Shown here one piece after another: positions 1 to 22,489 of a stretch of DNA of 64,000 bases; the first letter of the stretch is position 1, and every line of letters starts with the position of its first letter. The stretch comes from Octopus vulgaris (taxonomy: Eukaryota), in assembly GCA_951406725.2 (NCBI GenBank), contig OX597814.1, positions 224,006,001 to 224,070,000 of the forward strand, given 5' to 3'. A model generated the notes under the pieces. That model was not told the origin of the DNA and did no database searches. It saw only the letters and a list, made by a program, of their open reading frames with translations. A program made the position numbers and the translations under genes.

Positions 1-211
1 ATTGATCTTCCAGGATTCTTCCACTCAGCACCAATGTAAGAAGCACTGTTGGCTCAGTTGAGCTCTTCCACTACCTCTTCACAATCTGCAGTCCCATGAT
101 TTCACCACATCCCAGTGCCAGAGTGGCTGAAAGGGTGCTAGGCCTTGCCAAAGGGCAGCCCATAACTATGCAAGCACAGTAGGCACTCTATAAGGTATTT
201 GTAAAATACCT

Positions 212-444
212 ATTTCTTTACTACCCACAAGGAGCTAAACACAGAGGGGACAAACAAGGACAGACAGACGGATTAAGTCGATTATATCGACCCCAATGCG
301 TAACTGGTCCTTAATTTATCAACCCCGAAAGGATGAAAGGCAAAGTCGACCTCAGCGGAATTTGAACTCAGAATGTAACGGCAAACGAAATACGGCTACG
401 TATTTCGCCCGGTGTGCTAATATTTCTGCCAGTTCGCCGCCTTT
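212..444 (-). mobile_element. SINE family B (tRNA-like head with GAGTTCAAAT B-box, body containing GCCTTTCATCCTTTCGGGGTCGATAAATTAAGTACCAG, Deu/Nin-like domain)
   Basis: Matches the other copies in the window; TAAAATACCT duplicated at 202-211 and 445-454. Confidence 0.85.
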
Positions 445-629
445 TAAAATACCTGCATAGCTTGAGCATTAAAGCATGTAAATTAGGCATAACCTTACAT
501 ATAGAACCAAGGTTGATTTTTTTTTTTTTTAAATATCTTTTTGGGGAAATAAACGTGCATTTTATACTGTGCCATGAATGATGGGGTTTCAACTACATGC
601 ACTCTAAGTTCAATCAAACTTTTACCTTT

Positions 630-700
630 CATCCTTTTGAGGCTTGTTGATGAAAGACTTTGTTGCTGCAGCCTGGGTTGGAACCCAGCCATCATAAAAA
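630..700 (+). mobile_element. 3' tail stub of RTE-like LINE family G
   Basis: ctttgttgctgcagcctgggttggaacccagccat recurs near 15075 and 50330. Confidence 0.55.
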
Positions 701-705
701 TGACA

Positions 706-1107
706 ATAATGATTTCAAATTTTGCCACAAGGGCAGCAACTTTTGGGGAGGGGACTAGTTGATTATATCAACCCCAGTGTTTCACTGATACTTAATTTAT
801 CAACCCCAAAAGGATGAAAGGCAAAATCAACCTTGGTGGAATTTGAACTCAGAACGTAGCAATGGGTGAAATACCTATTTCTTTACTACCCACAAGGGGA
901 GACACACAGAGGGGACAAACAAGGACAGACAAATGGATTAAGTCAATTATATCAACCCCAGTGCGTAACTGATACTTATTTAATTGACCCTGAAAGGATG
1001 AAAGGCAAAGTCAACCTCGGCGGAATTTGAACTCAGAACGTAACGGCAGACGAAATACCGCTAAGCATTTCACCGGGTGTGCTAACGGTTCTGTCAGCTT
1101 ACCACCT
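706..1107 (-). mobile_element. SINE family B, dimeric form (head + two internal units + alternative tail)
   Basis: Two related ~184-bp units in tandem, then the tail cccttgtggcaaaatttgaaatcattatt. Confidence 0.85.
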
Positions 1108-2449
1108 TATCAGTATCATCATCATGATCATCATAATGAGGAGGAGGAGGAGGAGAAGGATAATGAAAGAACAAACCCAGGGTAAGTGGATTAGCAGAAT
1201 TGTTAGAAGGTCAAGCAAAATGCCCTTGTGAAAATTATTTTTGCTTTATGTGTTGATAGAAACAACTGAGATGGCCATTGGTGACAAATTGTGCTGGTTT
1301 CAATTGGCAAGCCATCTCTTGGATAAACATCAGTGGTGTGAACAGGAAGGAGAAACTCGGCTGCATAAGTGACAACAAGTCTGCCTCAAAATGTCTTGTC
1401 CAGGTTTGCACACATACTTACAAGGCATTGGTCAGCCTGGGGCTATAGTTAATAGAAGACACTTTCTCAAGTGGTACAGTGGTACAGTGGGACTGAACCC
1501 GAAACAACATAGCTGGGTGAATTATTTTAACTACACAACAATACCTGCACATACATCATCATCATCATCATCATCATCATTATTATCATCATTTTAATGT
1601 TCACTTTTCCATGTTTGCATGGATCAGATGGAATTCAACTGAGGCAGATTTTGATTATTTTTTTTTTACAACCAAGATGTCCTCCCTGTCATCAAGCAAA
1701 GTAATAAATAAATGCTTCCTCATGACCAGATAAGGTTTTATGAAGACAGGAAACGAATGACAACACTTGTATGATGATGATACTCATAACTATCACATAG
1801 TCAAAATAAGTATACACATGCATGCACACGCACTATATTATGTGTTTGTGTATATATATATATATATATGATGGGCTCATTTCAGTTTTCATCTACCCAA
1901 TCCACTCAAGAATTTGGTCCGCCTGGGGTTATATTAGAAAATGTGCTGTGTTGTCATGCAGTGGAACTGAGCCCAAAAACACATAGTTGGAAAGCAAACT
2001 TCTCTAACACACACCCAAACCTCCACCTAAATTCTTCAAAATTGGTGTATTTGTGATTTTACATATACCAAAATTCAATAACCTATATTAATGTCTTTCC
2101 CCTTCAAATAACTCAGGCTTTTTATTCTTTGTCTGACTCACAACTTATGTTGCTAACACATTCTCTTTTACTCAGTAACACTCACTGATGCAGAGAGGGT
2201 ATAGAACTATCATCTTTTCTCTCTTTCTCTCTCTCTCTGGAACTTTCATTCTCTCCAACAGTCTCATACAATCTTTTTCTGCCATACTCAGTCACTACTT
2301 TAAGCTCTTGTATATCAAAGATGTTTTAACCATTATACTGAAACACAATTGGCCTACTACCTCCAAACAACAACTAACATTCAAAATTTGAAACAGACAA
2401 ACCACATCTAAGCTTTTTTTTCCCTACCTTTAACCCTCCAACTCAGAGT

Positions 2450-2815
2450 ATAGGCCACTTATAGTTGAATTCCATGTTGCATAATTTTTCGCTTCTGTAC
2501 TTATACTCTGCCATGAATATCCCCCTTTCTCTAGTTCCTTTTGTGTTGATCTCCGCCACGAGTTCTTAGGCCTACCTCTCCTTCAATATCCAACCGGTTT
2601 CCACTGTAAAGCACTTTTCGCTACATTTGGTGTTTCTTTTCTGATTGTGCTACCAATCCACTTCCACTTTTTCTTAACTATTTGCTCCCTAATTGAAACT
2701 TCATTTGTTCTTTGCCACAGCTCCATATTGCTTATGTGTTCAGGCCATCTAATTTTAAGTATACTACGCAAGCGTCTGTTGATGAATGATTGTATTTGCT
2801 TATTTGACTTAACTG
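2450..2815 (-). mobile_element. Degenerate RTE-clade LINE ORF 3' end
   Basis: Peptide LRSILKIRWPEHISNMELWQRT...WKWIG...ALQWKP..RRGRPKNSWRR, typical RTE C-terminus, contains a stop. Confidence 0.85.
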
Positions 2816-3780
2816 TTGTTAACTGTTATCCAAGCGGATAACTCTTTCGCCTTTTACACCTAACCTTACTGTCATTTATTCCTTATATAAGCTACTGATA
2901 GAGGAAGACTAAACCCTTGAAAGCAGTGTGCCAGTATGGTCACACTCCAAATATAGAAACCAGTAATAAAAGAATATGAAACTGCTGAAATCATCCCCAT
3001 GCTACAGAAGCATGTAATACTTGCAAACAAATTAGGAGACTAAAGGAAGATACGAAAGTGGATATTACAGCAATGGCACACAACCATAGCTAAGGCAAGT
3101 GCATTTGAGAAAGCAGCAAACCATGACATAGTCAACAGATGACAAATATAGTTCCTTGCCGTCAAGCCACAATTATTATTACAACCAATATCACATCCAT
3201 TACCGTTATTTCCATCATTATCATTGCCATTATCATCCAATGACAGCAATCATTTGTAATATGCTCTGAAATAAAATGCCAGCTAAAATGCTGATATATT
3301 TATTCAACAACAATCATAAAAGTTAAGTGGCCCATTATTGAACAATTTGTTGTATTTAAGTCCCCCCCCCACCACCACCAGTCATTGGGTCAAAATAAAA
3401 ATAGCAACAATAAAAAATAAATCAAGTTTTAAAAAGAACAACAAAAAAAACGGTTTAAATGGGATGGGAGAAATAGTTTTGAAGTAAAACAAACTTAGCC
3501 TAGTCTGGGGGGGGGGAGAGATGGAGCAAGAGTTGGGAGAGAAATACCAGGTTACTTACTAGAGAGGTAAGAATTTATGAGGTTGTCAAGTGACCCAAAT
3601 TCTCAGATAAAAATAGATAAAAAAAATTTCTTCATTAAACAACACAGAAAGAAATAGTATCTCAAAATCACCCCTAACCCAACCAAACACCTAACCCCAT
3701 ACATAGACAATTATTTGATTGGTTTCTTTTACACAAACCATTTCAGAATTGATAGATTTGGTCATCAGTAGTCTTGAGTA

Positions 3781-3850
3781 AGGTAGACAGGTAGATGCAT
3801 ATGGAGACAAGTAGATGCATATGTAGACAGGTAGATGCATATGTATACGT
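3781..3850. repeat. 20-bp tandem repeat x3 (gtagacaggtagatgcatat)
   Basis: Seen directly. Confidence 0.8.
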
Positions 3851-3863
3851 ACTAGCCATTATA

Positions 3864-4064
3864 CCTGTACTGTAGTAAGAGGACCGAAATGCAAATTATA
3901 TGACTGACAAACACTAATTACAAATGATTCTGTTCAAAAGTAGTACTGTAATCTTAATCTTCCTTCGGGCCTAAAGAAGGTGTGCAATCAGCTACTGCAA
4001 GCCAAAACACTTATTAACTACGTGCACTTTTTACTCAGCTGCACCTATCTCTGCAATACACAGG
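3864..4064. mobile_element. Possible TA-flanked MITE (Tc1/mariner-like)
   Basis: TA|CCTGTACTGTAG...CTGCAATACACAGG|TA imperfect terminal inverted repeats. Confidence 0.45.
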
Positions 4065-4650
4065 TATATGGGTTAGTACTGCTGCTGCTACTGTTGCTAC
4101 ACACATTCCTGCATCTTAAAAATGAGAATTCACAAGGCCAAAGTGGGGAAAACTTTTTTTTTAATTAAGGCATAAATGCATCTTATACTGAGAAAAAATA
4201 CCAAATCTTAAAACTGTACAAATTTGAAGTATAGAGGTATGAATCTTAAAATTAATTTTTTTTTTTTTTTTGATGGTTGATAGACATCATAAGCAAAGAG
4301 TTTCAAATTTGAATGTGGTCAAAATTTCACCAGGGGCAAAGGGTGCACAACATCCATGTATAAACCTTAACTATTTTCAAACGGACTGTTTTTGGTCCAT
4401 CTCTATCAATCTACCTGTGCCAACCTTCTGTCCTCAGTTCGCAACCTCGTAAATGCTTGTAACATGAAAAGCAGTACCCAGTAAACACTGTAAAATGGCC
4501 AACATTAGGAAGGGCATCGAGCATCATTGTTTAAATGTTCCCTTTTCTGTGCCCAACGGAATTTGTTTAAGTGGATTTTCTATGGCTGGAGGCCCTTCCT
4601 CTCAATAACTAAAGTAATATTTCCCTTTGACCAGACATGTTTTTACAGAA

Positions 4651-5075
4651 GAACCTGTGTTCTCATTCCTAAGGTATTTTTCAATGTTATTATAATAATA
4701 ATAATTATTATTATTATTATTATTCAGGTCACTGCCTGGAATTGAACTCAGAATCTTGAGGTTAGTAGCCCACGTTTTTAACCACTATGCAATATGCCTG
4801 TGTGGCTACTAACCCCAAGTTTCCAAGTTTGATTCCAGGCAGTGACATTAATAATAATATTAATAATAATAATAATATTAATAATAATAGTAATAATAAC
4901 ATTGAAAAATACCTTAGGAATGAGAACCCAGGTTCGAAATTTCCCCAAGACACCTGATGAAGGCTGGAGGGTATATCAGCTGAACCGTTGTGTTAACAAC
5001 AAACAAGATGAGGACAAATATCAGTGTCAAATGTAAGTAATGTATATAATTCTTCATCTCTTAAACATAGAACTG
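4651..5075. mobile_element. Fold-back element: tRNA-like head + (AAT)n + body with hammerhead-like motif; Penelope-type/retrozyme-like
   Basis: 4651-4800 is the inverted copy of 4801-4935. Minus arm has A-box-like TGCATAGTGG and B-box GAGTTCAATTCC; plus arm continues into CTGATGA at 4954. Confidence 0.7.
4949..4994 (+). ncRNA. Degenerate minimal type-I hammerhead ribozyme motif
   Basis: GACAC-CTGATGA-A-GGCTG(loop)CAGCT-GAAC-CG-TT-GTGTT. Stems I and II pair; GAAA appears as GAAC in this copy. Confidence 0.6.
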
Positions 5076-5835
5076 AAGGCTTCTTTCAGTTTCTGTTTTC
5101 CATATCCAGTCACAAGACTTTGGGGGACCCAAAGTTATAGTAGAAGACATTTGCCCAAGGTGCCATGCAGTGGGACTGACCCTGAAACCATGTAGTTGGG
5201 AAGCAAGCTTCTTACCACATAGCCACACCTGCACTTGTATGTTTAGCGAATAGAAGTGGTATGCATCAAGCTAGACTCAATCTGTATCTTTTAGCTTTGA
5301 TATAAACTGAATTTACTGTGGTTTTAACTGCTAATTGTGATATATGAAACAAAAAGGTCTTTTTGTTTGGGTTTTTTTTCTAAACTAGCACAAATATTTG
5401 CAACAATTCAAAGTTAAAATCCAACACACAATACATCTTTGTTAATTCTATTTTAACAACGATACCCGTGAGGTCTTTGCAACTTGCAGCAAATGATCGA
5501 CAATAAAACACTTCAACAAAAAAGAAATCTTAATGTACAGTAGCTGACAATAGAGTTTATATATAACCTAAACTGTTGCATTTAAAGACAACACATTGTA
5601 CAATGAACACAAGCACAGCAGCAGAAAAATGCACATAAAACAAATTCATTACCCAAAGCACTAACAAACTTAATTATAACTTTCTCTTTTTAATCTTCTC
5701 TGGTGGAGACAGCAGCTTTAAAATTCATGTAAAGCAATGTTTTTGGACAACAATGCTTTAAATGCAACTGCTACAGCCTGCAAGGTAGGAAAAAACTAAA
5801 GCAAGGCAGCTTCCTGACAAAAGTCATTCATAAGA

Positions 5836-6208
5836 ACATCATCAACATCTTTTAACGTCCACTTTCCATGCTGTCATGGGTTGGACGGTTTGACTGAGGA
5901 CTGGCGAACCAGATGGCTGCACCAGGCTCCATTCTTGATCTGGCAGAGTTTCTACAGCTGGATGCCCTTCCTAATTCCAACCACTCCAAGAGTGTAGTGG
6001 GTGCTTTTACATGCCACTGGCACGAGGGCCAGTTAAGCGGTACTGGCAGTGGCCACAAAAAAAATCATTCTTTTTTTTTTTACGTGTCAACTGCACCCCG
6101 GCACAAGTGCCAGTAAGGTGATGCTGATAACGATCACACTCGAATGGTGCTTTTTACGTGCCACCGACACAAACGCCAGTTAGCCACTCTGGCAACGATC
6201 ACACTTTG
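5836..6208 (-). mobile_element. Family C retro-stub (headless, (GAT)n tail, GGCGTTAGGAAGGGCATCCAGC domain, internal ~57-bp repeats)
   Basis: Same sequence as the copies at 8136, 20268, 21817, 30668, 56365 and 61123. Confidence 0.8.
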
Positions 6209-7411
6209 CCATGGAAATATCATCATCATCCTCCTCTTTGTGGTTTTTTTAATGTCTGTCTTCCACATTGACAAGGGTTGGACAATCTGACAGGTCTGAC
6301 AGGTCCAAGGACTGCATCATGTGGCAATATCTGTTTGGAATGGTTTCATGGGTGAATGCCTTCTTTAATGCCAACTCTTTATAGAGTTTACTGAGAATTT
6401 TACTTATGGCACAAGCAAAGTTAGATCACTACACAGTTTGCAAGACTAGGATCCCCTCTCAGAATTGAGGAGTTAAGATATGAGAGATGGGAGTCATAAA
6501 AGAACAGGCTACTTGCTGCCAAGGAGCTGCAAAGCTACTCGCAGTATAGAAGAGAGGGTGGGAGTAACTGAGGTGAAGCTGGGAAGAGAGATAAAACAGT
6601 GGTGATGAGGTATCAGGTCAGGAGGTGAGTAGAAGTGAATGGAGACAAGACAACAGAAGGAAAGAATTGGAGAAAAGAAGTTGCAAGTGTGCATCTGGAG
6701 AGCAAGGAATGGCGAGAGATGAGGAATGAGGGGTGAATATAATGAATGAAGGACAAGTGTTGTGGGATGATAAATAAATATATAGGACTGAACAGATTGG
6801 CAGAGTGAGGTGTGGATGTAGTGGTTAATGTTATATGAGTTGGGTGAGAGTAGGTGATGACTGACAGTGCAGAAAGAGGCAAGAAACAGCTGAATATTAA
6901 TAATGATACAGTAGACAGAGGAAGGGCGAGATAGACAGAGGGAAAGAGATGGCATATGGTTGGCTAGGTTGCTAGAGTGTGGGGAAAGAGGCAGTTGTAG
7001 TTCAAGGGGAGAGTGAGAGATGTAAGGTGAAGGAGAGATAATATGGTACTTGAAGAATGATACCAACCTGCCTGAAACCATCCTTGGTTTGATGATACAA
7101 ACTTTCTGTTTTGAAAGGATTAAATTGAAACCTTCCATCAAGATTTCAGTTTAATTGATGTTGCAGACACCAGATTAATGACAAAAATATTTGGAAAAAC
7201 AACAGTTAAATTGAGATTTAGGTTTATTCTAAGTTAATCATAAACAATTTATAATATATATACCTGGCATAAGATATAAGTGTAGAGGTTGTGAGTAAAC
7301 ATCATTTTTACACCGGTTATTGGTTGGTAGATTGACAGGTTGCATGCCTTGTTGAGAGATAGAAAGATAGACAGACAGGTAATTAAACTAGAAAGAGATT
7401 ACATTACTCAC

Positions 7412-7713
7412 CTGTAAAACTCTACTGGTATCAAATCTCCGACTGCTAGGTCTTCCTTCCAGAGTACTAAAGACAACTGTGCCTCCAGAGAGTGGAGATA
7501 TATCACTAAATTCATCACTACAAACTGCCTTTGACTCATCATATGCAGTAATAATAGATTTCGGCCGTAAGCCGTAGGTACGCTCACAAGAAGAACTGTA
7601 GTATTGGTAAGGTATCCATTCACCATCTTCTGTAGTCCTTTTATAGATGGCAAAACTTTCGGGACGACTCGAGTGGAATCGTATACTCACGTATGTGATA
7701 TCAAAAGCTTTCT
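7412..7713 (-). CDS. LAMC1: Internal coding exon of a laminin gamma chain (LAMC1/LanB2-like), laminin N-terminal (LN) domain
   Basis: Translates as KAFDITYVSIRFHSSRPESFAIYKRTTEDGEWIPYQYYSSSCERTY...CSDEFSDISPLSGGTVVFSTLEGRPSSRRFDTSRVLQ, closely matching the laminin gamma LN sequence I recall (KAFDITYVRLKFHTSRPESFAIYKRT...WIPYQYYS...EFSDISPLTGGNVAFSTLEGRPS). Acceptor is T-rich ...tttacag| (AG at 7715-7714, phase 1); donor is CAG|GTGAGT (7411-7406, phase 0). Confidence 0.95.
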
Positions 7714-7809
7714 CTGTAAAGATTAAAAAAAAACAGAAATAAGTAACTTAAGAGATAAAATCTTTGATATCGTCTTTATAGAGGCAAAATAAAATTTGAC
7801 TGTTTAGTA

Positions 7810-8665
7810 CCTTTATCTTTTACTTGTTTTAGTCACTGAACTGTGTGGCCATGTTGGGGCAATGCCTCGAAGGGTTTTAGTTGAACAAAACGACCCCAAT
7901 ACTTATTATTTTTAAGTCAGGTACTTATTTATTCAGTCTCTTAACCCTTTCGCTACCAGCCCGGCTGAAACCGGCTCTGGCTCTTAAGTTTTAAATTGAA
8001 ATCTTCTACCAAACCTTAGTCACAATTAATGTTCCTAACACTTGCTTAATGATAACTGAGTTATTTTATTAAATTCTTTGTTGTATTTAAAGTAACTGAA
8101 AGAAACAGAGAGCATCTCAAAATAAATACAGTAACATCATCATCATCATCATCATCATTTAGCATCCGCTTTCCATGCTAGCATGGGTTGGACGGTTCAA
8201 CTGGGGTCTGGGAAGCCAGAAGGCTGCACCAGGCCCAGTTTGATCTGGCAATGTTTCTACGGATGGATGCCCTTCCTAACGCCAACCACTCCATGAGTGT
8301 AGTGGGTGCTTTTACATGCCACCGGCACAGGTACCAGACGAGTCTGGCAAACGGCCATGATCGGATGGTGCTTTTTATGTGCCACCGGCACGAAAGGGTT
8401 AAACCAACACCGGTGCTCTAAAGAGGTGGTGACAAACACAAAGACACACACATATATGTATGACAGGTTTCTTTTTTTTAGTTTCTGTTTACAAAATTCA
8501 CTCACAACACACACACACAAACACACAGTTTACATCAACCAAATTCACTCACAAGGCATTAGTTGGTCTGCAATTATAGTAGAAAACACTTGCCCAAGGT
8601 GCCACACAGTAGGACCGAATGTGAAACCATGTGGCTGCAAAGTGAGCCATAGCTGAGCCTGTGTC
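7810..8665 (-). mobile_element. SINE family A, interrupted by a piggyBac-type MITE
   Basis: Tail half at 7810-7940; head half resumes at 8403. Confidence 0.7.
7945..8398. mobile_element. piggyBac-type MITE containing a family C insertion (about 8136-8391)
   Basis: TTAA at 7941-7944 and 8399-8402; left TIR CCCTTTCGCTAC, right TIR GTAAC|GAAAGGG split by the insert. Confidence 0.8.
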
Positions 8666-9252
8666 TATGTTATGTAGACGTATGACAGAATTGACCAGAA
8701 TTATACAGATGACTTCCAATTACTATTGACAACAAAATGAAGATAAAATATGTCTGGAGTAAACATTAAACGCCTTCCTGTATTTTGATGTTTTATGATA
8801 CTTAAATTATGAGTTCAAACCTTACTGATGCCAACTGTCTTTTATCCTCTCACAGTCAATAAAATAAATAGCAATCAAGCACCAACATTTATTTAATTAA
8901 CTGTACACTCCAAAATATGTGGCCTTGAATATATATTAGAAACTATTACAATTTTATTCCTCGTATCAGTTTAACATCCGTTTTTCCATATTACTATGAT
9001 TTGGCTTTTTTTTTAAAATCATATAGAATGAAACTATGATGATGATGGTGGTGATGGTGATGGTGGTGGTGGTGATGATGAAACTGACCTTTAAGTCAAG
9101 CAATGTTATCTCTAATATGCTTAGTACTCATGGTACAAATATAAAAATAGTCTCAAAATTATTGGGAATCTCTTTGGTTAACCATAGCTTCCATTCCTTT
9201 GATTAGATAAACTCAAGCAAACAGAATGACACTGCTTGAGACAGACAGACAG

Positions 9253-9256
<4 letters not shown>

Positions 9257-9311
<55 letters not shown>
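9257..9311. repeat. (TG)n microsatellite
   Basis: Seen directly; one of many dinucleotide tracts in the window. Confidence 0.95.
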
Positions 9312-9313
<2 letters not shown>

Positions 9314-9649
9314 ACATGTTGAGAGAGAAAAACAAGCAAAGGAACAAAATCAAAGAATGAAGAACAGCAGCCAAAGTCTTTGAAGAATCTTTCATACACA
9401 TAAAAATAGATCAGTTGTTGTTTAGCCCAAGGTCAGCTCTGGTCAAGCAGACCTTTGATGATTAAAGGCATACTAACCATATTAGACATTTTCACACACA
9501 CCCCACCTTTTTTTTTTTTTAAATATACATTAGGGGCTGCTCTGACCAGTGCATCCTTCTTTATTTGAAATGGTATGGTGTTAACTGAAGAATATTTGTT
9601 TGTTGTTTCCAGCAGAAGGAGCAACTGGATATAGGCTCTGTTTTTTTAG

Positions 9650-10042
9650 GTGTCTTGCTGTAGAAGAGATACATGAGAGATGGTGAAGAAGATGTATCAG
9701 AGAATGGGACAGAGTGGTGAGAAAGGTTCTACAGATGGTGGCATTCACAGAGGGGATGACAGGGGGCCAAGACTCCTGGCAGTTTGCTGTGTTTTAGAAG
9801 ACACATCAATTAAAAGTGTGGTTGCCCTCACATACAGGCTCATCTCACCAGCCAAGCACCCCTAATTTTGCAGGCTCATAGGTGCCGGTGCCGCGTAAAA
9901 TCACCCATGCCAGTACTGCATAAAAGCACCCAGTACACTGTAAAGTGATTGGTATTAGGAAGGGCAATCTAGTCCTTCAGTTGGTTAGCTCCTGTCAATT
10001 CATCTAACCCATGCCAGCATGAGAAATAGATGCTAAATGATG
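9650..10042 (+). mobile_element. RTE-type LINE ORF end running into a family C 3' UTR
   Basis: Aligns by eye with 47590-48000 (gtggtgagaaagg...agaagaca...taaaagcaccc...aggaagggca...ccatgccagcatg...aatgatg). Confidence 0.7.
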
Positions 10043-10069
10043 TGTGTGTGTGTGAGTGTGTGTGTGTGT

Positions 10070-10610
10070 ATAGGCATGGCTATGTGGTAAGAAGCTTGCA
10101 TCCTAATCACATGGTTCTGGTTCAGACCTATGGCATGGCACCTTGGACAAGTGTCTTCTACTATAGCCTCAGGCCGACCAAAGCCTTGTGAGTAGACTTG
10201 GTAGATGGAAACTGAAAGAAGCCCATCATGTGTGTGTATATCTTTGTGAGCAGTTGATTTTACAGTGTGATGCTTGTCTTTACTACTACCACCACCACAA
10301 CTATTACTGCCACTACTACTAATACTACTACTCATCTGTGAAACAAGGAGTAACAGAACTTGTGTTTGTCCCTCCATTACTGCTTGACAACCAGTGTTAG
10401 TGTGTTTACATCGCTGTAACTTAACAGTTTGGCAAAAGAGACCAATAGAATAAGTACTAGGTTTTAAAAAAAAATGAGTCCTGGGGACGATTTGTTTGAC
10501 TAAAACCCTCGAAAGCGATGCTCCAGCATGGGCCGCAATCTAATGACGGAAACAAGTAAAGTAATATGGTGGTGCCCCAGCATGACCGCAGTTTTGAAAC
10601 TGAAACAATT
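10070..10610 (+). mobile_element. SINE family A with internal low-complexity insert and duplicated tail
   Basis: Head ggcatggctatgtggtaagaagc...ggttcag; tail module ccagcatg(g/a)ccgca occurs twice. Confidence 0.75.
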
Positions 10611-10957
10611 TTAAAATTTAAAGATAAATACACGTGAGGTGGTAGTTCGTAAAAGTGTGGAAACTTGCGCAAGAGATATCTTCATGCATCTTGAGCTGTT
10701 ATTCCATGTTTGGTTTAAGTTTATTCTGATCGGAGGAAGATTTGAAATTCTTCAGATATACCAAAACTAATCAAAAGACAAAAGCACAGTTTCGGTGCTA
10801 GATAACAATGTCAACAATAATACTTTATCCAAGTACTTCATTGACACTTAGCGTTTGCAATTCTTGCTGAATAACTTATACATAACTGTTACCATAGCAA
10901 GAACACAACTCTTAGTTTGCTGGCCGCGAAACAGGTTCTGTTACTCCTTGTTTCACA

Positions 10958-10959
10958 GT

Positions 10960-11004
<45 letters not shown>

Positions 11005-11079
11005 AGAAGTAGTAGTAGTAGTAGTATTAGTAAGAAGAAGTAGTAGTAAGTAGTAGTAGTAGTAAGAAGAAGTAGTAGT

Positions 11080-11124
<45 letters not shown>

Positions 11125-11149
11125 CAGTAGTAGTAGTAGTAGTAGTAGT
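10958..11149. repeat. (AGT)n trinucleotide microsatellite, imperfect
   Basis: Seen directly; source of the poly-L/Y/T/V ORFs. Confidence 0.95.
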
Positions 11150-12209
11150 GAAGACAATCATCACACTGTAAAATCAATTATTCACGCGATATGCACAAAA
11201 AGTGAAAATTTGTAAATATCTGTTTCCACGCATTTGCAAAAAGTGAATGTGATTAAATAAATAAGATAACAATTAAAAAATTCCAAATTGTAGAGTTGAA
11301 GTTCGTTTGACAGAGTAGAAAAAAAATTTTAAAGCACAAAAGTTAATTGTCCTCACAGAAATGTTACAGAGCTATACAAAATGGTTTCATTTGTTCGTTT
11401 CGGCATGTTTTTTTACCTTTTTCTTTTTTTTTTTTTTTCATGTCGGGCTGTACAGAGACATCTTTGAAGCAAGATGCCTTTCCTGTTGCCAACCCTCACC
11501 TGTTTTTCAAGCAAGAGATCTTATGGTCTACTGGTCTCTAAAATGCACACAGAGGCCAGTTGTAATGTTAACAAGGAATATAAGCATTCATATGCATACA
11601 CACAGAGCAGGTTTCCATACAGTTTCCAGTTTCCAATTCCACTCTTGATCAGGCGAAGGCTTTAGAAGACATTTTCCCAAGGTGTTGCACAATAGTACTG
11701 AACCTGAAACCATGTGGTTGCAAAGCAAATCTCTGAAGCACACAACCATCCCTGCACCTTCATATATGGTTCTTTGTTACCCACAAGGGGCTAAACATAG
11801 AGGGGACAAAACAAGGACATACAAACGGATTAAGTCAATTACATCGACCCCAGTGCATAACTGGTACTTAATTTATCGACCCCAAAACATATAGTAAATA
11901 TTTAGTTTATTTCATTCGACAAGGTTCAGTATTCACGCTCTATTGATGTTCTGTTAAAGTTAGCTTTTTCTAGATAACAGAAGGTAGGGAAAGAGGGAGA
12001 GAGAGAGAGAGAGAGTGTGAGTGTGTGTGTAGGTATGTATGATTGTAATAATTATTTTTAACAAAACAGATAGAATATGGATGGTAAATCAAAGTAATAC
12101 ACTTGTCAATGTTGCCTAGTGGTTGTCTTTTTGAGATGTGACATCAAACATCGCTTGTAACTGAAAGAACGCTGGTTCACACATACAAACTTCCACATAC
12201 TTCCCTTGT

Positions 12210-12244
<35 letters not shown>

Positions 12245-12549
12245 TACATACACTCACACAAAGTTGAAACGCTGTTTGACTTTTCTTTTCAGCATTGAAT
12301 GTTCACCAACATCATTTGCATTTGCGACTTTTATAAACCTACACTTTTCCCACGATTAACATAGTCATAAGTAAGGATTCTTATAATCTAGGCACAACAA
12401 CATAGTTGCATCTATATAATTAGCATAAGGAATATTAAATTTAAAAAATAATAAATACAAAGAAAGAAAATCAATAAATTAATAAAATTTGAACAGAGGT
12501 CCATAATCATCGCTTATTAAATTTCAGTCCACTAGAATTTCATAATTAT

Positions 12550-12884
12550 ATCTATCTATCTATCCGCTCAGTCGAAGTCAACTCTTGGTTACTCGATGGA
12601 CCAGTGTTCTCCAGCCAGTTCTATCCTGGGTCACTTTTTTCAGATTGGCTATGGCCATTCCCGTGTCACTTTTGATGGTGTCAAGCCAGCAGGTTCTTGG
12701 TCAGCCTCTTCATCTCTTGCCACTGACCATTCCGAGCATGATGTCCTTCTCCAGGGATTTTCTCCACATAATATAACCAAAATATGCCAGTCTATGCTTG
12801 GTGATCCTAGCTTCTACCAACAGTTTCGGCTTGATCCATTTAAGAACTTCTCCATTGGTCTGCCTCGCTGTCCATGGAATCAGT
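12550..12884 (-). mobile_element. RTE/BovB-type LINE 3' end
   Basis: IPWTARQTNGEVL...RLAYFGYIMWRKSLEKDIMLGMVSGKR*RG*PRTCWLDTI followed by a (GATA)n tail. Confidence 0.85.
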
Positions 12885-13099
12885 AAAATTATATAAATGT
12901 GTGCTATTCATTCTTTCTTATACATGTATGAATATGCCACTTTTAAATTTTCCATGTATCGTGTTATTTTTACATTTTATGTGAATGCATATAAGCCGGT
13001 ACCCCAGTATGGCCACAATCCAATGACTGAAACATGTAAGAGTATTTCATTAGTATCTGATATCTGTGGAATGCAAGATTGATTGTGCCTAATGCACAA

Positions 13100-14785
13100 T
13101 GCGAGTTGGCAGAGTGGTTAGCAAACCGGGCGAGATGCTTAGCAGTATTTCATCTGTCTTTACGTTCTGAGTTCAAATTCCGCAGAGGTCGACTTTGCCT
13201 TTCATCCTTTCGGGGTCGATTAAATAAGTACCAGTTATGCACTGGGGTTGATATAATCGACTTAATCCATTTGTCTGTCCTTGTTTGTCCTCTCTGTGTT
13301 CAGCCCCTTGTGGGTAGTAAAGAAATGGGTATTTCGCCTGCTGTTACGTTCTAAGTTCAAATTCTTCCGAGGTCGACTTAGCCTTTCATCCTTTCGGGGT
13401 CGATTAAATAAGTACCAGTTATGCACTGGGGTTGATATAATCGACTTAATCCATTTGTCTGTCCTTGTTTGTCCTCTCTGTGTTCAGCCCCTTGTGGGTA
13501 GTAAAGAAATGGGTATTTCGCCTGCTGTTACGTTCTAAGTTCAAATTCTTCCGAGGTCGACTTAGCCTTTCATCCTTTCGGGGTCGATTAAATAAGTACC
13601 AGTTATGCACTGGGGTTGATATAATCGACTTAATCCATTTGTCTGTCCTTGTTTGTCCTCTCTGTGTTCAGCCCCTTGTGGGTAGTAAAGAAATGGGTAT
13701 TTCGCCTGCTGTTACGTTCTAAGTTCAAATTCTTCCGAGGTCGACTTAGCCTTTCATCCTTTCGGGGTCGATTAAATAAGTACCAGTTATGCACTGGGGT
13801 TGATATAATCGACTTAATCCATTTGTCTGTCCTTGTTTGTCTTCTCTGTGTTCAGCCCCTTGTGGGTAGTAAAGAAATGGGTATTTCGCCTGCTGTTACG
13901 TTCTAAGTTCAAATTCTTCCGAGGTCGACTTTGCCTTTCATTCTTTCGGGGTCGATTAAATAAGTACCAGTTATGCACTGGGGTTGATATAATCGACTTA
14001 ATCCATTTGTCTGTCCTTGTTTGTCCTCTCTGTGTTCAGCCCCTTGTGGGTAGTAAAGAAATGGGTATTTCGCCTGCTGTTACGTTCTAAGTTCAAATTC
14101 TTCCGAGGTCGACTTTGCCTTTCATCCTTTCGGGGTCGATTAAATAAGTACCAGTTATGCACTGGGGTTGATATAATCGACTTAATCCATTTGTCTGTCC
14201 TTGTTTGTCCTCTCTGTGTTCAGCCCCTTGTGGGTAGTAAAGAAATGGGTATTTCGCCTGCTGTTACGTTCTAAGTTCAAATTCTTCCGAGGTCGACTTT
14301 GCCTTTCATCCTTTCGGGGTCGATTAAATAAGTACCAGTTATGCACTGGGGTTGATATAATCGACTTAATCCATTTGTCTGTCCTTGTTTGTCCTCTCTG
14401 TGTTCAGCCCCTTGTGGGTAGTAAAGAAATGGGTATTTCGCCTGCTGTTACGTTCTAAGTTCAAATTCTTCCGAGGTCGACTTAGCCTTTCATCCTTTCG
14501 GGGTCGATTAAATAAGTACCAGTTATGCACTGGGGTTGATATAATCGACTTAATCCATTTGTCTGTCCTTGTTTGTCCTCTCTGTGTTCAGCCCCTTGTG
14601 GGTAGTAAAGAAATGGGTATTTCGCCTGCTGTTACGTTCTAAGTTCAAATTCTTCCGAGGTCGACTTAGCCTTTCATCCTTTCGGGGTTGATAAATTAAG
14701 TACCAGCTGTGTACTGGGGTCGATCTAATCGACTAATCCCCCCCAACCAAATTTGAGGCCTTGAGCCTCTAGTAGAAAGGATTAT
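13100..14785 (+). repeat. Tandem array of a 184-bp SINE-B internal unit (8 full units + terminal partial), with single head and tail
   Basis: Units start at 13145, 13329, 13513, 13697, 13881, 14065, 14249, 14433 and 14617; units 2-8 differ at only about 3 sites. Confidence 0.97.
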
Positions 14786-14889
14786 GGGTGTAGTACATGT
14801 GTTCTATGTGTGATGTCCTATGTGTGCCATGTGGTCCATGTGATGCACAATGCTTTTGCAAAGGATACAGTCATGTTGCATATATGCAC

Positions 14890-15120
14890 TGGCCTGAACT
14901 TCATTCACTATATTCAGCCCTCATTCAACTGGGGTCTTGTGGAATCTGCTTCACAGTGATGTAAGAAGAGGAAAATGTTGTCACACTTACATCGACAACT
15001 TGATTGCAGACAATGGCTTGGAATGATTCTAGGACTTAGAAGCAGTGATGATGGGCTGAGAAGTGTTGTGGGTGGCCTTTGTTGCTGCAGCATGGGCTGT
15101 AACCCAGCCATAATAATAAT
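14890..15120 (+). mobile_element. RTE-like LINE family G 3' end
   Basis: gtcttgtggaa...gatgtaagaagagga...ctttgttgctgcagc...aacccagccataataat, shared with 50205-50378. Confidence 0.6.
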
Positions 15121-15889
15121 GTGATTAAGGAACATGATATGATCATAGTGTAAGATGTTTTAGTGTGACATAATGTGTGATGCAACTGACACATGTGATG
15201 CAACTGCAATTTCAATGTATGATGCAGTAATGTGTGGGTGTATGTGACGTGTCTTAATCTGCATACAATTCTCTAAGTATGGTTATACGAAATACTACTG
15301 AAAGGAAGAATCACATTAAAAAGCGAAAGAGCCACCAGAGGCTTCTTGGCTTATATTGTTTGCCATTGTTGTTATAAGACACCAATTTCATTTTATGCTA
15401 TAAGACACCAATTTCACACACACACACACACACTTAGCTACAGGGACTCTACAAAAAGGTTCTCACATCCTATGACAAAGACCAAGCAGCACCACTTAAA
15501 TTTAATTACACCATTCTTATAAAAGATCTTTACCATTTCCTCTACACCTCTTTCTTCTTGTAGACTCATTTATTGCTTATAATAAAGAAGATAAAAGCCG
15601 AGAAGAAGAAGAAGAATATACAGAGGAAATGAACAATGAACTTGGTGTGAGAAAGATGTTAGTGATTCTATAGCAATTTATTTGTGGATGTATCATATTA
15701 GATGAGTGATAATTAAATTGTACAAGTGAAAAAACAAAAAAAAAACAAGACACAGTGACTAACTAAATGAATAAGGGGGGGTCACGTAGCTTGATGGCTT
15801 CATGCAACTTAGTTTCAAATCCGACACCCATGTATCTATGTAATGTCTCAATATTGTTGGAAATCACTGCTTTGAAATGGAATTTCAAA

Positions 15890-16285
15890 ACTCTCTTTTA
15901 CTCTTTTACTTGTTTCAGTCAGGTGACTGTGGCCATGCTGCAACACCACATTTAGTCGAGCAAATCAACCCCAGGACTTATTCTTTGTAAGCCCAGTACT
16001 TATTCTATTGGACTTTTTTGCCGAACAGCTAAGTTACGGGGGACGTAAACACACCTGCATCGGTTGTCAAGCGATGTTGTGGGGAGAGGGCAAACACAGA
16101 CACACAAACACACATACATATACATATATACGACAGGCTTCTTTCAGTTTTCGTCTACCAAATCCACTCACACGGCTTTGGTCGGCCCGAGGCTATAGCA
16201 GAAGACACTTGCCCAAGGTGCCACGCAGAGGGACTGAAACCGGAACCATGTGGTTTGTAAGCAAGCTACTTACCACACAGCCACT
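15890..16285 (-). mobile_element. SINE family A (tRNA head TGGCTGTGTGG / GGTTCAGTCC, internal TA/TG tract, (AAAGAGT)n tail)
   Basis: Near full-length match to 33254-33682. Confidence 0.9.
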
Positions 16286-17270
16286 CTTTTTTTATTCTTA
16301 CTTGTGGCTTAAGATGACATGTAAAAGAGGATTAGCAATGTAAATGGAATTAGGTTAGCAAATTCTTCAAAATGTGATTGCATGTGTGTACATATCAGGA
16401 TGCCTACATGCAATTTAAAACTGTATTCCAATAATCTAATAATAAAAAATGTTTTTTTTATATTAACAGAATGGTTCATTACATGGTCATTGCCACAAGT
16501 TACATCACACACACATACAAACACACGCGAGTGAAGTAGGAATCAATACATTTGGTTCGAGTTGAGTCAAACTGGTGTGTGTGTGTACAAGCATGCATAT
16601 ATAATTCATTTACATACTGAAATTAATACTACATGAAGGTTATAAAACAGCTGAAATCATATGGAAGTCAGATGAATAAATAACTATCTTCACCTCTCAC
16701 ACTTCCTAACTTTACACACACGCACACACACATACATGTATACATACACATATGAAGATAATCAGGAAAACCATTTTTTTTCCCTGGTTATTAACATTGT
16801 CTTAGATAAGGAAGGGCATTATCCATGCAAGACATTCACAGAACTTAGGCAAGAAGAAAGAGAAAAAGAAATCCCATGTCATGGTTTAATGCAAAAGATA
16901 ACAAGACGGTATCACATAAAGATGCTGAGTTATCCAGTTAGAGAAGAGGCTGGGTCCAAATGTTTGCCATAGAGTGGACTCCTGTAAAGGCATCTGAATG
17001 CCAGATGCTGCTTTCAAAACAGACATTGTATAAAGTCTCTCAATAAAATCAGATACACTCTGATATAGGTTACCACACAATTTGCATCTACCCGATTCCA
17101 CACTCGAGGCTTAGCTTGACCTGAGGCTGTGGTAGGAGAGATACTCAGCACCAAATCGAGACCAATGTAACAGCATCATATCTGGAACCCTGTGATTGCA
17201 AAGTAAACTTTATAACTACAAACGAATAACTGAGTTCATCGTCTCTGTTGGATTGCTTACTCTGTTGGAT

Positions 17271-17500
17271 TGCGTTGTGAGTGTTTATTGAGAGAAAACA
17301 CCTAAAAGCTCCACGAGGCTCCGGCAGGAGGTGGTGGTGATCCCTGCTGTACTCTTTCACCACAACTTTCTCTCACACTTTCTTCTGTTGGCCTGCTCGC
17401 TTAGCCAGCGGGGTGGCATCATTTGAAGGCTAAAACAATGTGAAGCGCATTGTGACCAGCGATGTGTAGCAACATCTGATAGCTTGGTCGGTCACAGTGA
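17271..17500 (+). mobile_element. 5'-truncated SINE family E body with its own tail
   Basis: First ~115 bp match the reverse complement of 51339-51455, then diverge. Confidence 0.7.
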
Positions 17501-17675
17501 TTATTGATTATATTTTGAATTATATATTTATGGAGGAACCAAATTCTTTTAATTGTGCAGGGCCAGACCTTGAAACAATATTTGGTCCTCATATATGGTA
17601 TTTAACATCAGAATCCCAGCAGTAGTTGATGATCTGCAGCAGAAATGTTAGAACTCCAGGCGAAATACTTAATGG

Positions 17676-18011
17676 TATTAGCACACCGGGCGAAATACGT
17701 GGCAGTATTTCATCTGCCATTACGTTCTGAGTTCAAATTCCGCCGAGGTCGACTTTGCCTGTCATCCTTTCGGAATCGATAAATTAAGGACCAGTTACGC
17801 ACTGGGGTCAATATAATTGACTTAATCCGTTTGTCTGTCCTTGTTTGTCCTCTCTGTGTTTAGCCCCTTGTGGGTAGTAAAGAAATAGGTATTTCATCTG
17901 TCTTCACATTCTGAGTTCAAATTCCACTGAGGTCGACTTTGCTTTCATCCTTTTGGGGGGGGTCAATGAATTAAGTACCAGTTGCATACTGGGGTCGATC
18001 TAACTGACTGG
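17676..18011 (+). mobile_element. SINE family B, dimeric form
   Basis: Head, one full unit and a second partial unit. Confidence 0.85.
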
Positions 18012-18711
18012 ATTAATATGAGCAGAGTTTGAGACATGGAAAATAGAATAGTGCAATAGAGAAAGAGTGAATACATTACAGCATTTTGTTTTTGTACTTC
18101 TCGTTTAAAATTCCCCCTAAGTCCCTCCAGACATACCCTCACTCTAAATGTGAATGTGACAATGATAGAATGGTGGTAAATCTATAAAATACCAATAATG
18201 TAATGGTACCATTTCAAAGATTATCAGTCAAAAGAAATCAATATGCTGATAGCTTAGTGAAATTAACAAGTTTCACAGGACAGAAATAAGGTACGCATCC
18301 AGAGAACAAAACAGACATACACACACAAACTAAAAATTGCAACCTGAACTGGTGATTGCAAGTAGAAGCCATTTCTTCACATCATATCTTTGTTCTTGAG
18401 AAAGACAAGAGCATCACATAACCTCATTTCTCAGCATGATTTTTTTTTTTTTTATGAAAGACAGACAGACAGAAAGAGAGAGAGTTAGAGAGTTAGAGAG
18501 TTAGAGAGAGAGAGAGAGATTCAGACTACTTTTTTTTTTTTGTCACAAGATATTCCAGTCTACTATTTAACACTAGTATTGTCCTTGAGTTGGTTAACAA
18601 GTTAGTCTGCAATATTTTCACACAGATAAGGCTGACTCAACATGTAGAAAATGGAACAGAAAATAATGTACAAAAAAGAGAGAGACAGAGAGAAACAGAG
18701 AGACAGAAAGG

Positions 18712-18748
<37 letters not shown>

Positions 18749-18895
18749 AGGAAGAAAGAAGGTAGAAATGTTTGGCCTGTGGTAGTTCTGCTATTATCCT
18801 CAAAGAAATAAAGTTCAGTCATGCAATGAGCAACACACTTAAGAAAGAAGTTTACTCAGCAGATCATTATTAGAGTTTATGAATTAGTCATATTC

Positions 18896-18934
<39 letters not shown>

Positions 18935-19114
18935 TGTGTGTGTGTATATACATGTATATGTCCTGTCAAGTAATTATATGCATTATATTTTTATTCTTTA
19001 TATTTGTGTGAGTATGCGTTATTTCCTTCTGTTTTTTTTTATGTGTATATATTGTTGTTTCTTTTTTTTTTTTAAACTCCCATGTATGTGTTTCAATGTG
19101 TTAGTGAGTGCATA

Positions 19115-19523
19115 TATATGCCAGAAGGTTTGCAAATCTAACGGAGGCCTCAAAAGACATTTTAAGAACCGCAAAGATCAGGACTTATCTGCTGCTCTTG
19201 GTGGTCCAAATCGGATATGCAAAGCCATATCAGATGCCATGATGATTCTAAGGTGTAGCACGTCGGGCGAAATGCTTAGCGGTATTTTGTCTGCCGTTAC
19301 GTTGTGAGTTCAAATTCTGCCAAGGTCGACTTTGCCTTTCATCCTTTCGGGGTCGATAAATTGAGTACCAGTTACGCACTGGGGTCAATGTAATTGACTT
19401 AATCCGTTTGTCTGTACTTGTTTGTCCCCTCTATGTTTAGCCCCTTGTGGGTAATAAAGAAATAGGTCTAAGGTGTAGGTACAGGAGGTGGTCAAACTCT
19501 GCATAAGGAGTAGACAACCACCA
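19115..19523 (+). mobile_element. RTE-type LINE 3' end, interrupted by SINE B
   Basis: C-terminal Cys/His finger ICQKVCKSNGGLKRHFK; tail aggaggtggtcaaactctgcataaggagtagacaaccacc. Confidence 0.65.
19259..19466 (+). mobile_element. SINE family B, 5'-truncated, 12-bp TSD
   Basis: TCTAAGGTGTAG at 19247-19258 and 19467-19478. Confidence 0.92.
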
Positions 19524-19544
19524 CACACACATACATATATATTC

Positions 19545-19727
19545 TTGGATCAGACAGCGTATTGTGTCTTTGAGCAAGAGATTTTTTCACCTTGCTTTAT
19601 TTCAGTTTATTTCACTCAGCTGTAGAAATGAGTTGCGACATCACTGGTGCCAAGCTGTATCAGCTTTTGTCTTTCCCTTGTATAACATTGGTATGCATGG
19701 GCGACTGCAGGTCTTCCATAAAAAAAC
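19545..19727 (+). mobile_element. CORE-like SINE fragment with body D
   Basis: tgtctttgagcaaga...cactcagctgtagaaatgagttgcgac...cactggtgccaagc, matches the reverse complement of 62606-62878. Confidence 0.7.
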
Positions 19728-19804
19728 CTCCTGTACCTATGCCTTAGAACCATCATGGCATCTAATGTGGCTTTGCATATCCGATTTGGACCACCAAGAA
19801 CTGC

Positions 19805-20007
19805 AGAAAACAAACAAATGTATTAGTATAATGCTCAGGAATTGAAAAAAGTCTTTTAACGTTTCGAGCCTACACTCTTCCACAGAAAGGAACACAGAAA
19901 GAAACAAGGATAGCTCCTTGTTCCTTTCTGTGGAAGAGTGTAGGCTTGAAACGTTAAAAGACTTTTTCAATTCCCAAGTGTTATACTAATACATCTGTTT
20001 GTTTTCT
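19805..20007. mobile_element. Inverted pair of Penelope-like pLTR fragments, each with a hammerhead-like motif
   Basis: Arms 19805-19894 and 19919-20007; motif CTTT-CTGTGGA-A-GAGT(GTAG)GCTC-GAAA-CGTT-AAAAG. Confidence 0.65.
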
Positions 20008-20267
20008 ACACAACATGTCTGGCCAGGGCGAAATATTACCTTGCTGTTTGGAAACAGATAGGGGTTGGTGCCAGGAAAGGTATCTGGTCATAGAAAATCT
20101 GTCTCAAATAAACACCATCTGATCCATGCAAGCATGGAAAAGTCGATAGATGATGATGATATATGGCTGCAGTGCTTTTTCTTGCTGCATCTCAAAATAT
20201 CCAAATTCCTTTACCATTCATCTGTTGCTATCTTGTATTAAGTTTCTATTATTCTTTGATATTAACT

Positions 20268-20461
20268 GTGCCGGTGGCACGTAAAAAGCACCCACTACAC
20301 TCACGGAGTGGTTGGCGTTAGGAAGGGCATCCAGCTGTAGAAACACTGCCAGATCAGACTGGGCCTGGTGCAGCCTTCTGGCTTCCCAGACCCCAGTTGA
20401 ACCGTCCAACCCATGCTAGCATGGAAAGCGGACGTTAAACAATGATGATGATGATGATGAT
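20268..20461 (+). mobile_element. Family C retro-stub
   Basis: gtgccggtggcacgtaaaaagcacc...ggacgttaaacaatgatgatg. Confidence 0.85.
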
Positions 20462-21816: not shown

Positions 21817-22118
21817 TCATCATCATCATCATCGTTTAACGTCCGTTTTCCATGCTGGCATGGGTTGGACGGTTCAACTGGGGTCTGGGAAGCCAGGAGG
21901 CTGCACCAGGCTCCAGTCTGATCTGGCAGAGTTTCTACAGCTGGATAGCCTTCCTAACACCAACCACTCTCAGAGTGTAGTGGGTGCTTTTTATGTGCCA
22001 CCGGCACGGAAGCCAATCAAGGCGGCGCTGGCATCGGCCACATACGAATGGTGCTTTTTACGTGCCACCAGCACAGGTATCACAACTACAATTTCTATTT
22101 GATTTTTTTATGTTGATA
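21817..22118 (-). mobile_element. Family C retro-stub
   Basis: Same sequence as the other copies; abuts the tail of the SINE A at 22120. Confidence 0.85.
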
Positions 22119-22119
22119 T

Positions 22120-22489
22120 ACTCTTTACTCTCTTTACTCTTTTACTTGTTTCAGTCATTTGACTGCGGCCATGCTGGAGCACCACCTTTTAGTACTTATT
22201 CTATCGGTCTCTTTTTGCCGAACCGCTAAGTGACGGGGACATAAACACACCAGCATCGGTTGTCAAGCAATGCTAGGGGGACAAACACAGACACACAAAC
22301 ACACACATACATATATATACATATATACGACAGGCTTCTTTCAGTTTCCGTCTACCAAATCCACTCACAAGGCATTGGTCGGCCCGGGGCTATAGCAGAA
22401 GACACTTGCCCAAGATGCCACGCAGTGGGACTGAACCCGCAACCGTGTGGTTGGTTAGCAAGCTACTTACCACACAGCCACTCCTGCGC
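22120..22489 (-). mobile_element. SINE family A with internal deletion
   Basis: Matches 33254-33682 but lacks the gtcgagcaaatcgaccccaggacttattctttg segment. Confidence 0.9.

Follow-up and report, generated by a model that had tools for sequence, protein, structure and literature searches.

Back-to-back terminal-repeat stumps of a Penelope/Poseidon-type retrotransposon with a tRNA-derived head in Octopus vulgaris

The window that we analysed is a stretch of 64,000 nucleotides of Octopus vulgaris (assembly GCA_951406725.2, contig OX597814.1, positions 224,006,001 to 224,070,000 of the forward strand), and positions below refer to it. A preliminary description had placed at 4651-5075 a tRNA-like head with boxes A and B, an (AAT)n linker and a hammerhead-bearing body, arranged against a truncated inverted copy of the same unit. 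All of these motifs were present where they had been placed, and the locus can be laid out as follows, with head positions counted on the tRNA scale and body positions from the start of the body.

4651..4802, minus strand: inverted arm, comprising head -3 to +76, (AAT)n and the first 36 body bases
4723..4802, minus strand: tRNA-derived head, complete only in the inverted arm and collinear with the tRNA-Arg(ACG) genes of the genome
4738..4747, minus strand: box B-like motif of the inverted head, decayed at CpG
4782..4792, minus strand: box A-like motif of the inverted head, with two changes against the family majority
4803..5075, plus strand: forward arm, a 5'-truncated pLTR with the head from +29 onward, AAT tract, ORF start, hammerhead and tail
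4827..4836, plus strand: box B-like motif of the forward arm, from which box A is absent
4849..4899, plus strand: (AAT)n tract from the head to the ORF start, variable in length from copy to copy and a frequent landing site for other elements
4920..5075, plus strand: first 50 codons of the ORF, with the first in-frame ATG at 4920 and a frame that crosses the hammerhead
4949..4994, plus strand: minimal type-I hammerhead, with the predicted cut after 4989
5040..5050, plus strand: internal preferred 3' end (body 139-149), the usual stop of inverted arms
5051..5075, plus strand: "tail" of 25-35 bases that closes with the terminal 3' end at 5075 (49 of the scored arms end at body 174)
5076..5245, minus strand: unrelated high-copy SINE outside the element (families D8, D10, D12, D14)

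The segment 4651-4802 mirrored 4803-4935 at 76% over 304 alignment columns (E 2e-60), so that the head-to-head inverted self-copy stood as described. Neither arm is whole: box A is found only in the inverted arm and the hammerhead only in the forward arm. The inverted arm lacks the outer, hammerhead-bearing part and ends 13 bases before stem I. Because 51 of 58 other inverted arms reach body 136-153 (see below), we infer that this one was secondarily shortened or joined prematurely. A long target duplication was not found around the window copy, whose outer left-arm part is gone. The insertion appears to interrupt the CA/TA-rich end of the SINE at 5076-5245. This SINE, which we take to be CORE-like, is very common, tRNA-headed and on the minus strand here, and has at least nine copies in the window. 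Elsewhere in the window, a 184-base unit is repeated in tandem (13145-14739; 8.7 copies, 98% matches); it belongs to another dispersed repeat and has inverted relatives at 204-1109. Two possible MITEs were also seen, an almost perfect hairpin some 130 bases long (19834-19967) and a 183-base inverted repeat of 99% with a 284-base spacer (30981-31630).

The hammerhead of the window copy has its stem I at 4949-4953 and 4990-4994, its stem II at 4962-4966 and 4977-4981, and its core at 4954-4960 (CTGATGA) and 4982-4989 (GAAC-CG-TT). It carries two lesions, A15.1>C (4985) and C11.1>T (4981), both predicted to be inactivating. The copy had been regarded as probably inactive owing to its GAAC, which held, with 4981 as a second lesion. 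Its ORF frame, as judged by translation and alignment, is disrupted by a 2-base insertion near 5023. With the core changed from GAAA to GAAC and box A missing from the hammerhead-bearing arm, the window copy is by its sequence dead.

The consensus check proposed in the preliminary description succeeded, in that the family majority restores CAGCCGAAACGTT; among 111 arms from tail-picked loci, 89 had GAAA and none had the GAAC of the window, and the core was intact in 34. The hammerhead lies far beyond chance, since the intact 41-base core had 1,117 exact matches in the assembly and the reversed-pattern control had none. The family majority has the minimal type-I core (CUGANGA, GAAA, NUH and the G10.1-C11.1 pair) together with an extra base after A9 and the palindromic 15.2-16.2, in agreement with the earlier assignment to the Penelope-type minimal hammerheads. 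Stem covariation, which had been named as a further check, was absent: the 11 pairs of stems I and II showed 2 two-sided changes over 111 arms of what is one young family, where covariation is not expected. Divergence at non-CpG positions was 4.6% in the core and 5.0% in the flanks of the same 111 arms, meaning that the copies decay neutrally, and the single common non-CpG core variant fell at the free position N7 (T 82, A 23), where it is also an Asp/Glu change in the overlapping ORF.

A scan with Rfam of window positions 1-20000 and of one intact copy gave neither a hammerhead nor a tRNA match; Rfam has no model suited to the minimal form of the hammerhead. Self-cleavage is a prediction from the layout, and the predicted minimum-free-energy fold of the monomer differs from the active hammerhead fold. 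Among the 15 of 54 RNA-read joints listed, none lay at the predicted cut site. The assembly also contains several further minimal-hammerhead-like motifs with different stems (L395-L410), of which L402-L404 and L408 are mutually similar and L402-L404 align with the PLE loci L070 and L077. No pair of boxes A and B was found within 400 bases upstream of 16 other hammerhead-like motifs, one of which is a decayed copy of the present family and some of which may be chance.

The head was compared with tRNA-Arg(ACG), which is the closest isotype tested rather than a proven source. Global alignment scores were 54.5 for the inverted arm of the window and 63.5 for a second copy (L088), against 19-20 +/- 5.5 (maximum 41.5) in shuffle controls, and boxes A and B as well as their spacing match this tRNA. 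The alignment thus bears out the tRNA-like head of the preliminary description. ARAGORN called no tRNA in the window, nor in any of six head-bearing loci. The genome has a cluster of tRNA-Arg(ACG)-like genes at about 206-base spacing on contig 2 (G000:C2:211.89-211.91 Mb; L184-L204), some with a changed anticodon.

The unit belongs to a large family. In the assembly (G000; 2.8 Gb, 227 contigs) the body gave 1,822 candidates, and all 40 that were scored matched at 91-100%. A 30-base tail pattern had 3,991 exact matches, with 0 for controls, which suggests, as a rough estimate, 12,000-23,000 tail-bearing arms at 4-6% divergence. The linkage of head and hammerhead body assumed earlier was confirmed for loci picked on the head, 33 of 40 having the body downstream within 700 bases (in one of the 33, just 15 body bases); these 40 were drawn from roughly the first 60 contig 1 places in the list, leaving out those already in the locus set. 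Most head-picked loci without a downstream body were interrupted within the AAT tract. What had looked like "alternative heads" upstream of this tract were rejected as such, being other elements nested in it. Two LINE-like families inside the tract (L096, L107, L104, L109, L132) end in (AAT)n and carry a restriction-like endonuclease motif (PD..D); presumably these are R4/Dong-like elements that target the microsatellite. A third sequence also begins in the AAT tract (L007, L098, L106, L357, L367).

The partner that encodes the reverse transcriptase (RT) was found through the flanks of hammerhead-picked loci, of which 4/30 had coding sequence directly upstream of the head. When loci were picked on DNA of the endonuclease region alone, the body lay directly downstream in 28 of 30, and 24 had a head match; the tail of the window copy, which the preliminary description had proposed to look for in the pLTRs of autonomous Penelope elements, was thereby located there. 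Among 34 RT-bearing loci, the body was present as a direct 5' repeat that runs into the ORF in L151, L153, L158 and L161, and as a partial direct 5' repeat before the ORF in L157 and L142. In the natural 5' pLTR copies L158 and L161 the body is N-terminal coding sequence, and its frame continues into the RT ORF. Since the repeat flanks the RT-endonuclease ORF on both sides, the unit is a pLTR and no independent element. It is thus almost certain that head, (AAT)n, hammerhead and tail make up the pLTR of a Penelope/Poseidon-type retrotransposon, and the window feature is a pair of back-to-back stumps of the terminal repeat of a protein-coding element, with no separate parasite RNA. The earlier proposal of a separate non-autonomous, retrozyme- or Sm-alpha-like element fails here, as the unit is the pLTR of an RT-encoding element and its body the start of the ORF.

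The encoded protein is in line with this placement. One natural copy matched RVT_1 (E 1.8e-8), and the DKG and YVDD motifs were present; a PLE with a GIY-YIG domain, encoded in the same genome, is 29% identical to the ORF over 470 aa. Of 21 database relatives, all carry PF26215 and 14 carry PF00078 in precomputed annotation, and one with 57% identity (P0016) keeps the peptide that overlaps the hammerhead core. A PDB search with a relative gave weak RT matches. The Pfam GIY-YIG model had no match on the domain of this family (P0002) and a weak one on P0016 (E 0.23). The C-terminal domain has an invariant Y, C-x-C, T, EH, H and R-x-x-KE in 11 aligned proteins, a pattern that we assume to be that of PLE endonucleases; called by motif, it fits a putative PLE endonuclease. 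The CX2-5CxxC linker between RT and endonuclease, which separates Neptune and Nematis from Penelope/Poseidon, was by inspection absent from P0002 and present in a control family. The clade label Penelope/Poseidon is a call from motifs and layout. A partner search with Pfam GIY-YIG returned other, Neptune-type families, and the body sequence was absent from 30 Neptune-type loci and 20 longer regions. One young Neptune-type Penelope family (L061, L062, L078, L080) includes numerous intact ORFs of 781 aa, and its 3' region is long and repetitive; the hammerhead-like motif L400 aligns with its flank.

We then turned to the marks left by insertion. The inverted and tandem arrangements that the preliminary description had proposed to count were unequally represented: an inverted arm, placed head to head, was found in 58 of 90 tail-picked loci, and a direct tandem in 1 of 30 hammerhead-picked loci. 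In 51 of the 58 the inverted arm ended at body 136-153, as compared with 174 in the other arm, and so was missing the last 21-38 bases. Target duplications of at least 9 bases (median 11, one mismatch allowed) were scored in 38 of 51 insertions, in comparison to 3.6% of shuffled pairings. The inverted arm, the two 3' ends and the long target duplications agree with the earlier attribution to Penelope machinery and not to a LINE. Within an insertion the two arms had the same N7 in 32 of 33 T/A pairs (five further pairs had a gap or C), and 36 of 157 derived states were common to both arms, against 8% between loci. This suggests that the two arms of each insertion come from one source; their origin from different RNAs was considered and dropped, since the arms of one insertion share variants.

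The same data bear on the possibility that the unit is a retrozyme, in which the hammerhead would cut multimers into monomers that circularise and are then reverse-transcribed. The hammerhead is indeed of type I, and pLTRs have been proposed as a source of retrozymes in the part available of bioRxiv 10.64898/2026.07.22.740005. Against this, the copies are dispersed and head to head, with the rare direct tandem just mentioned, their ends lie at the tRNA start and the tail, away from the cut site, and the unit overlaps the ORF. We consider this explanation very improbable and already largely refuted.

Insertions of PLEs with an inverted 5'-truncated copy and a 30-40-bp tail are described in the accessible part of PMC8557442, and the PLE of the anole cuts and extends both strands from two RT start sites and inserts uncleaved RNA, with a hammerhead dispensable in vitro (PMC11167929). 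By the scheme that we propose for the octopus element, the endonuclease would cut both strands about 11 bp apart, and each 3' end would prime reverse transcription: the terminal site would serve for one of them, and for the other the internal site, which lies 25-35 bases further upstream. The template for both arms would be uncleaved RNA from one source, because the copies extend about 85 bases past the predicted cut site. The cDNAs would run off at the 5' end of the RNA (tRNA position -7 to +1) and be joined head to head, often after folding back on a short palindrome at the run-off point. The hammerhead, predicted to be slow and dimer- or protein-dependent, would be unneeded for insertion, as for the anole element. 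With its thousands of copies, two fixed 3' ends, duplications of about 11 bp and matched arms, the family offers a genomic test bed for how Penelope elements integrate.

Most genomic copies end where the tRNA begins. Among 75 arms that bear a head, 36 ended at -7 to +5, 15 at +7 to +22, which is the base of a hairpin, and three further inside, while four ended at -12 to -18 and 17 beyond -20; the ends at -7 arise in part from how the palindrome aligns. Genome-wide counts of 25-mers were 2,521 at +1..+25, 672 at -33..-9 and 614 at -151..-127, meaning that copy number drops 3.75-fold across the tRNA start and 1.1-fold over the next 118 bases; these counts are raw, uncorrected for mutation rate, and two places in the head pattern are degenerate. 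Many ends at exactly +1 or at -2 to -7 join partners that are not palindromic. In nine loci (L361, L368, L374, L377, L380, L385, L389, L390, L393) the arms begin at or near mature tRNA +1, alongside another group that begins at -2 to -7; a speculative cause is the trimming of a pre-tRNA-like transcript in the manner of RNase P.

The pairing of arms was also informative. When one arm was long, its partner passed the tRNA start in 10 of 15 insertions (L119, L125, L130, L168, L230, L290, L328/329, L330/331, L345, L349), against 0.27 expected (p 0.0014), and stopped at the boundary, at -1 to +12, in L111, L132, L137, L139 and L281; the pairs were classified by hand, partners ending before the head being uncounted and L258 dropped as ambiguous. 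Since there is a copy-number step at the tRNA start, and since long arms pair with long arms, a separate short RNA probably starts at the tRNA head and is likely to be made by polymerase III. The correlated arm lengths could, however, reflect differences in processivity from event to event.

Alternatively, the copies may be ordinary 5'-truncated ones, all from a long Pol II RNA, with the head a passenger of the 3' UTR left by an old tRNA or SINE insertion, and with a hairpin or palindrome that stalls the RT or folds back the cDNA. A stable hairpin (-21.7 kcal/mol over 86 bases, z -2.2) is in fact predicted to span the tRNA start in the long RNA, the fold-back lay exactly at the palindrome in 12 of 40 head-picked loci, and known PLE promoters are LINE-like internal ones, according to the available part of PMC2377424. 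Since 5 of 15 long-arm partners stop at -1 to +12, that is at the tRNA start, the hairpin alone does stop some cDNAs. However, the partners of long arms pass it far more often than arms do generally, many ends lie 5' of the hairpin or at exactly +1 without fold-back, and boxes A and B with their spacing have been kept though the cloverleaf is lost. We regard the passenger explanation as rather unlikely; were it right, the locus would be an ordinary truncated Penelope insertion.

Short RNA and hairpin both seem to act. In a two-parameter estimate from the 15 insertions, a short Pol III RNA would be the source of about 60% of head-reaching arms, and the long RNA that of the rest; on the long RNA the hairpin would stop about 30% of cDNAs. 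In summed contigs and RNA reads, whose depths are not copy numbers, the ratio of head to ORF-end depth was about 1-1.5, and the step was not reproduced. Logan contigs of four runs (four organism labels) contain the junction of ORF end and head. In three raw RNA-seq runs of one study, reads were equal on both strands and 67-72% of them ran into unlike flanks; there was no pile-up of starts or ends in these runs, which are uninformative on promoter and cleavage.

A further possibility is that the short copies have become an independent lineage, a Penelope-dependent SINE with master genes of its own that arose from a solo pLTR. About 80% of tail-picked insertions have no ORF sequence upstream of the head, a 9-base duplication was found in 12 of 28 short arms as compared with 3 of 29, and a variant at head position 64 was enriched in short arms (p 0.016). 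Two things confound this enrichment, however: the manner of choosing the ORF set, and ORF arms that stop short of the duplication. Moreover, no position separates short from ORF-bearing arms, which have polymorphisms in common and the same divergence (5.0% and 4.8%, respectively), and the short unit has no sequence of its own. An independent lineage thus appears improbable.

If a short RNA is made from the tRNA head of the downstream pLTR, the same promoter in the upstream pLTR might serve the whole element. Under this proposal, which we regard as doubtful, RNA polymerase III would transcribe the genomic RNA of an autonomous element of about 2.7 kb from a tRNA-Arg promoter that the element has captured, and the promoter of the downstream pLTR would give the SINE-like short RNA behind most copies. 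Oligo-T terminators would have been removed from its sense strand. In the majority sequence, that strand is free of runs of four or more T over 2,646 bases. The expected number was 3.35 under a trinucleotide shuffle (p 0.02), 2.64 under a synonymous shuffle (p 0.045) and 3.0 over 630 codons with the codon usage of controls (p 0.028), and four ORFs of a Neptune-type family, with equal T content, had 7-9 such runs per 2.3 kb. Natural copies had 0.32-0.34 runs per kb. The result is weakened because the clade is poor in Phe (2.2-3.1 per 100 aa in relatives), because, under control codon usage, AAAA likewise falls short of its expected number (26 against 49), and because one natural stretch of 569 codons has three T runs. 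A search for a head-less sister Poseidon family as a control gave this family only (30/30 loci, 82-100% identity). We therefore read the absence of T4 runs as a weak hint of whole-element Pol III transcription.

The closest described system is Poseidon_Ac of the green anole (PMC11167929; PMC8557442, the latter as far as accessible). It resembles the octopus element in its pLTR-ORF-pLTR layout, its RT with a C-terminal endonuclease-like domain, a minimal hammerhead that overlaps the beginning of the ORF and has its cut site past the ATG, a tail defined by two preferred 3' ends, and an inverted 5'-truncated arm. In the octopus element, unlike Poseidon_Ac, a tRNA-derived head and (AAT)n open the pLTR, most copies stop there, and the sense strand has no T4 run; the PLE promoters described in the available part of PMC2377424 are LINE-like and internal. 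The minimal hammerheads of metazoan PLEs (Cervera and de la Pena 2014, PMC4209133) have the same core, G10.1-C11.1 pair, unpaired base between 9 and 10.1, palindromic 15.2-16.2 and 5-bp helix I, and pairs of them lie 100-700 bp from each other on opposite strands; the octopus element has a helix II of 5-6 bp, the schistosome families of that study one of 7-8 bp.

Other repeats share the promoter rather than the insertion mode. The TRIMp3 elements Cassandra, Helenus and Ajax likewise have a small-RNA-derived Pol III promoter in a terminal repeat, proposed to come from a SINE that landed there (Kojima 2024, PMC10886601, in its accessible part); they are, by the same text, non-autonomous elements with true LTRs, whereas the octopus repeat belongs to a protein-coding Penelope whose short form is its own pLTR. 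Sm-alpha and Sj-alpha also place a tRNA-related Pol III promoter before a hammerhead in a short repeat, but Sm-alpha, unlike the octopus element, forms tandems, and its ribozyme cleaves in vitro and frees monomers; the available parts of PMC6765202 and PMC2770079 report neither an ORF overlap nor Penelope insertion marks for it. SINE2 elements resemble the octopus unit in their tRNA head, short length and tens of thousands of copies, and presumably in a 3' part recognised by the RT of a partner, a likeness that is inferred. The octopus unit differs in that its partner is a Penelope element that contains the whole unit, and it does not form a separate lineage with only the 3' end in common, as a SINE2 would. 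The tRNA-derived octopus SINEs OK, OR1 and OR2 were reportedly described by Ohshima and Okada in 1994. OR1 and OR2 are cited as CORE-SINEs in the accessible parts of PMC4824008 and PMC4758252.

The literature covered gave no instance of a protein-coding PLE whose pLTR contains a tRNA-derived promoter. The available parts of PMC7761336, PMC3531059, PMC4824008, PMC4758252, PMC6962438, PMC13282606 and PMC2377424 contain nothing on a tRNA head in a PLE, and that of bioRxiv 10.64898/2026.07.22.740005, on retrozymes, has no mention of tRNA. Repbase, Dfam, the supplements of SINEBase and bioRxiv and the 1994 octopus SINE paper were outside this scope and may hold the family. Head-to-head Penelope insertions and minimal hammerheads are already known; the unusual part is the tRNA head inside the pLTR.

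If the whole element is transcribed by polymerase III, a protein-coding retrotransposon would depend on a polymerase whose transcripts are uncapped, and its translation would become a testable question, as would the role of a hammerhead that cuts downstream of the first ATG; the element would also be a SINE caught at birth within its own partner. SINEs are thought to arise when a promoter from a small RNA becomes fused to the 3' end of a retrotransposon that serves as partner. In the octopus element the putative promoter lies within the partner's own terminal repeat, so that the SINE-like copy and the autonomous element are one sequence, and the partner is a Penelope element instead of a LINE.
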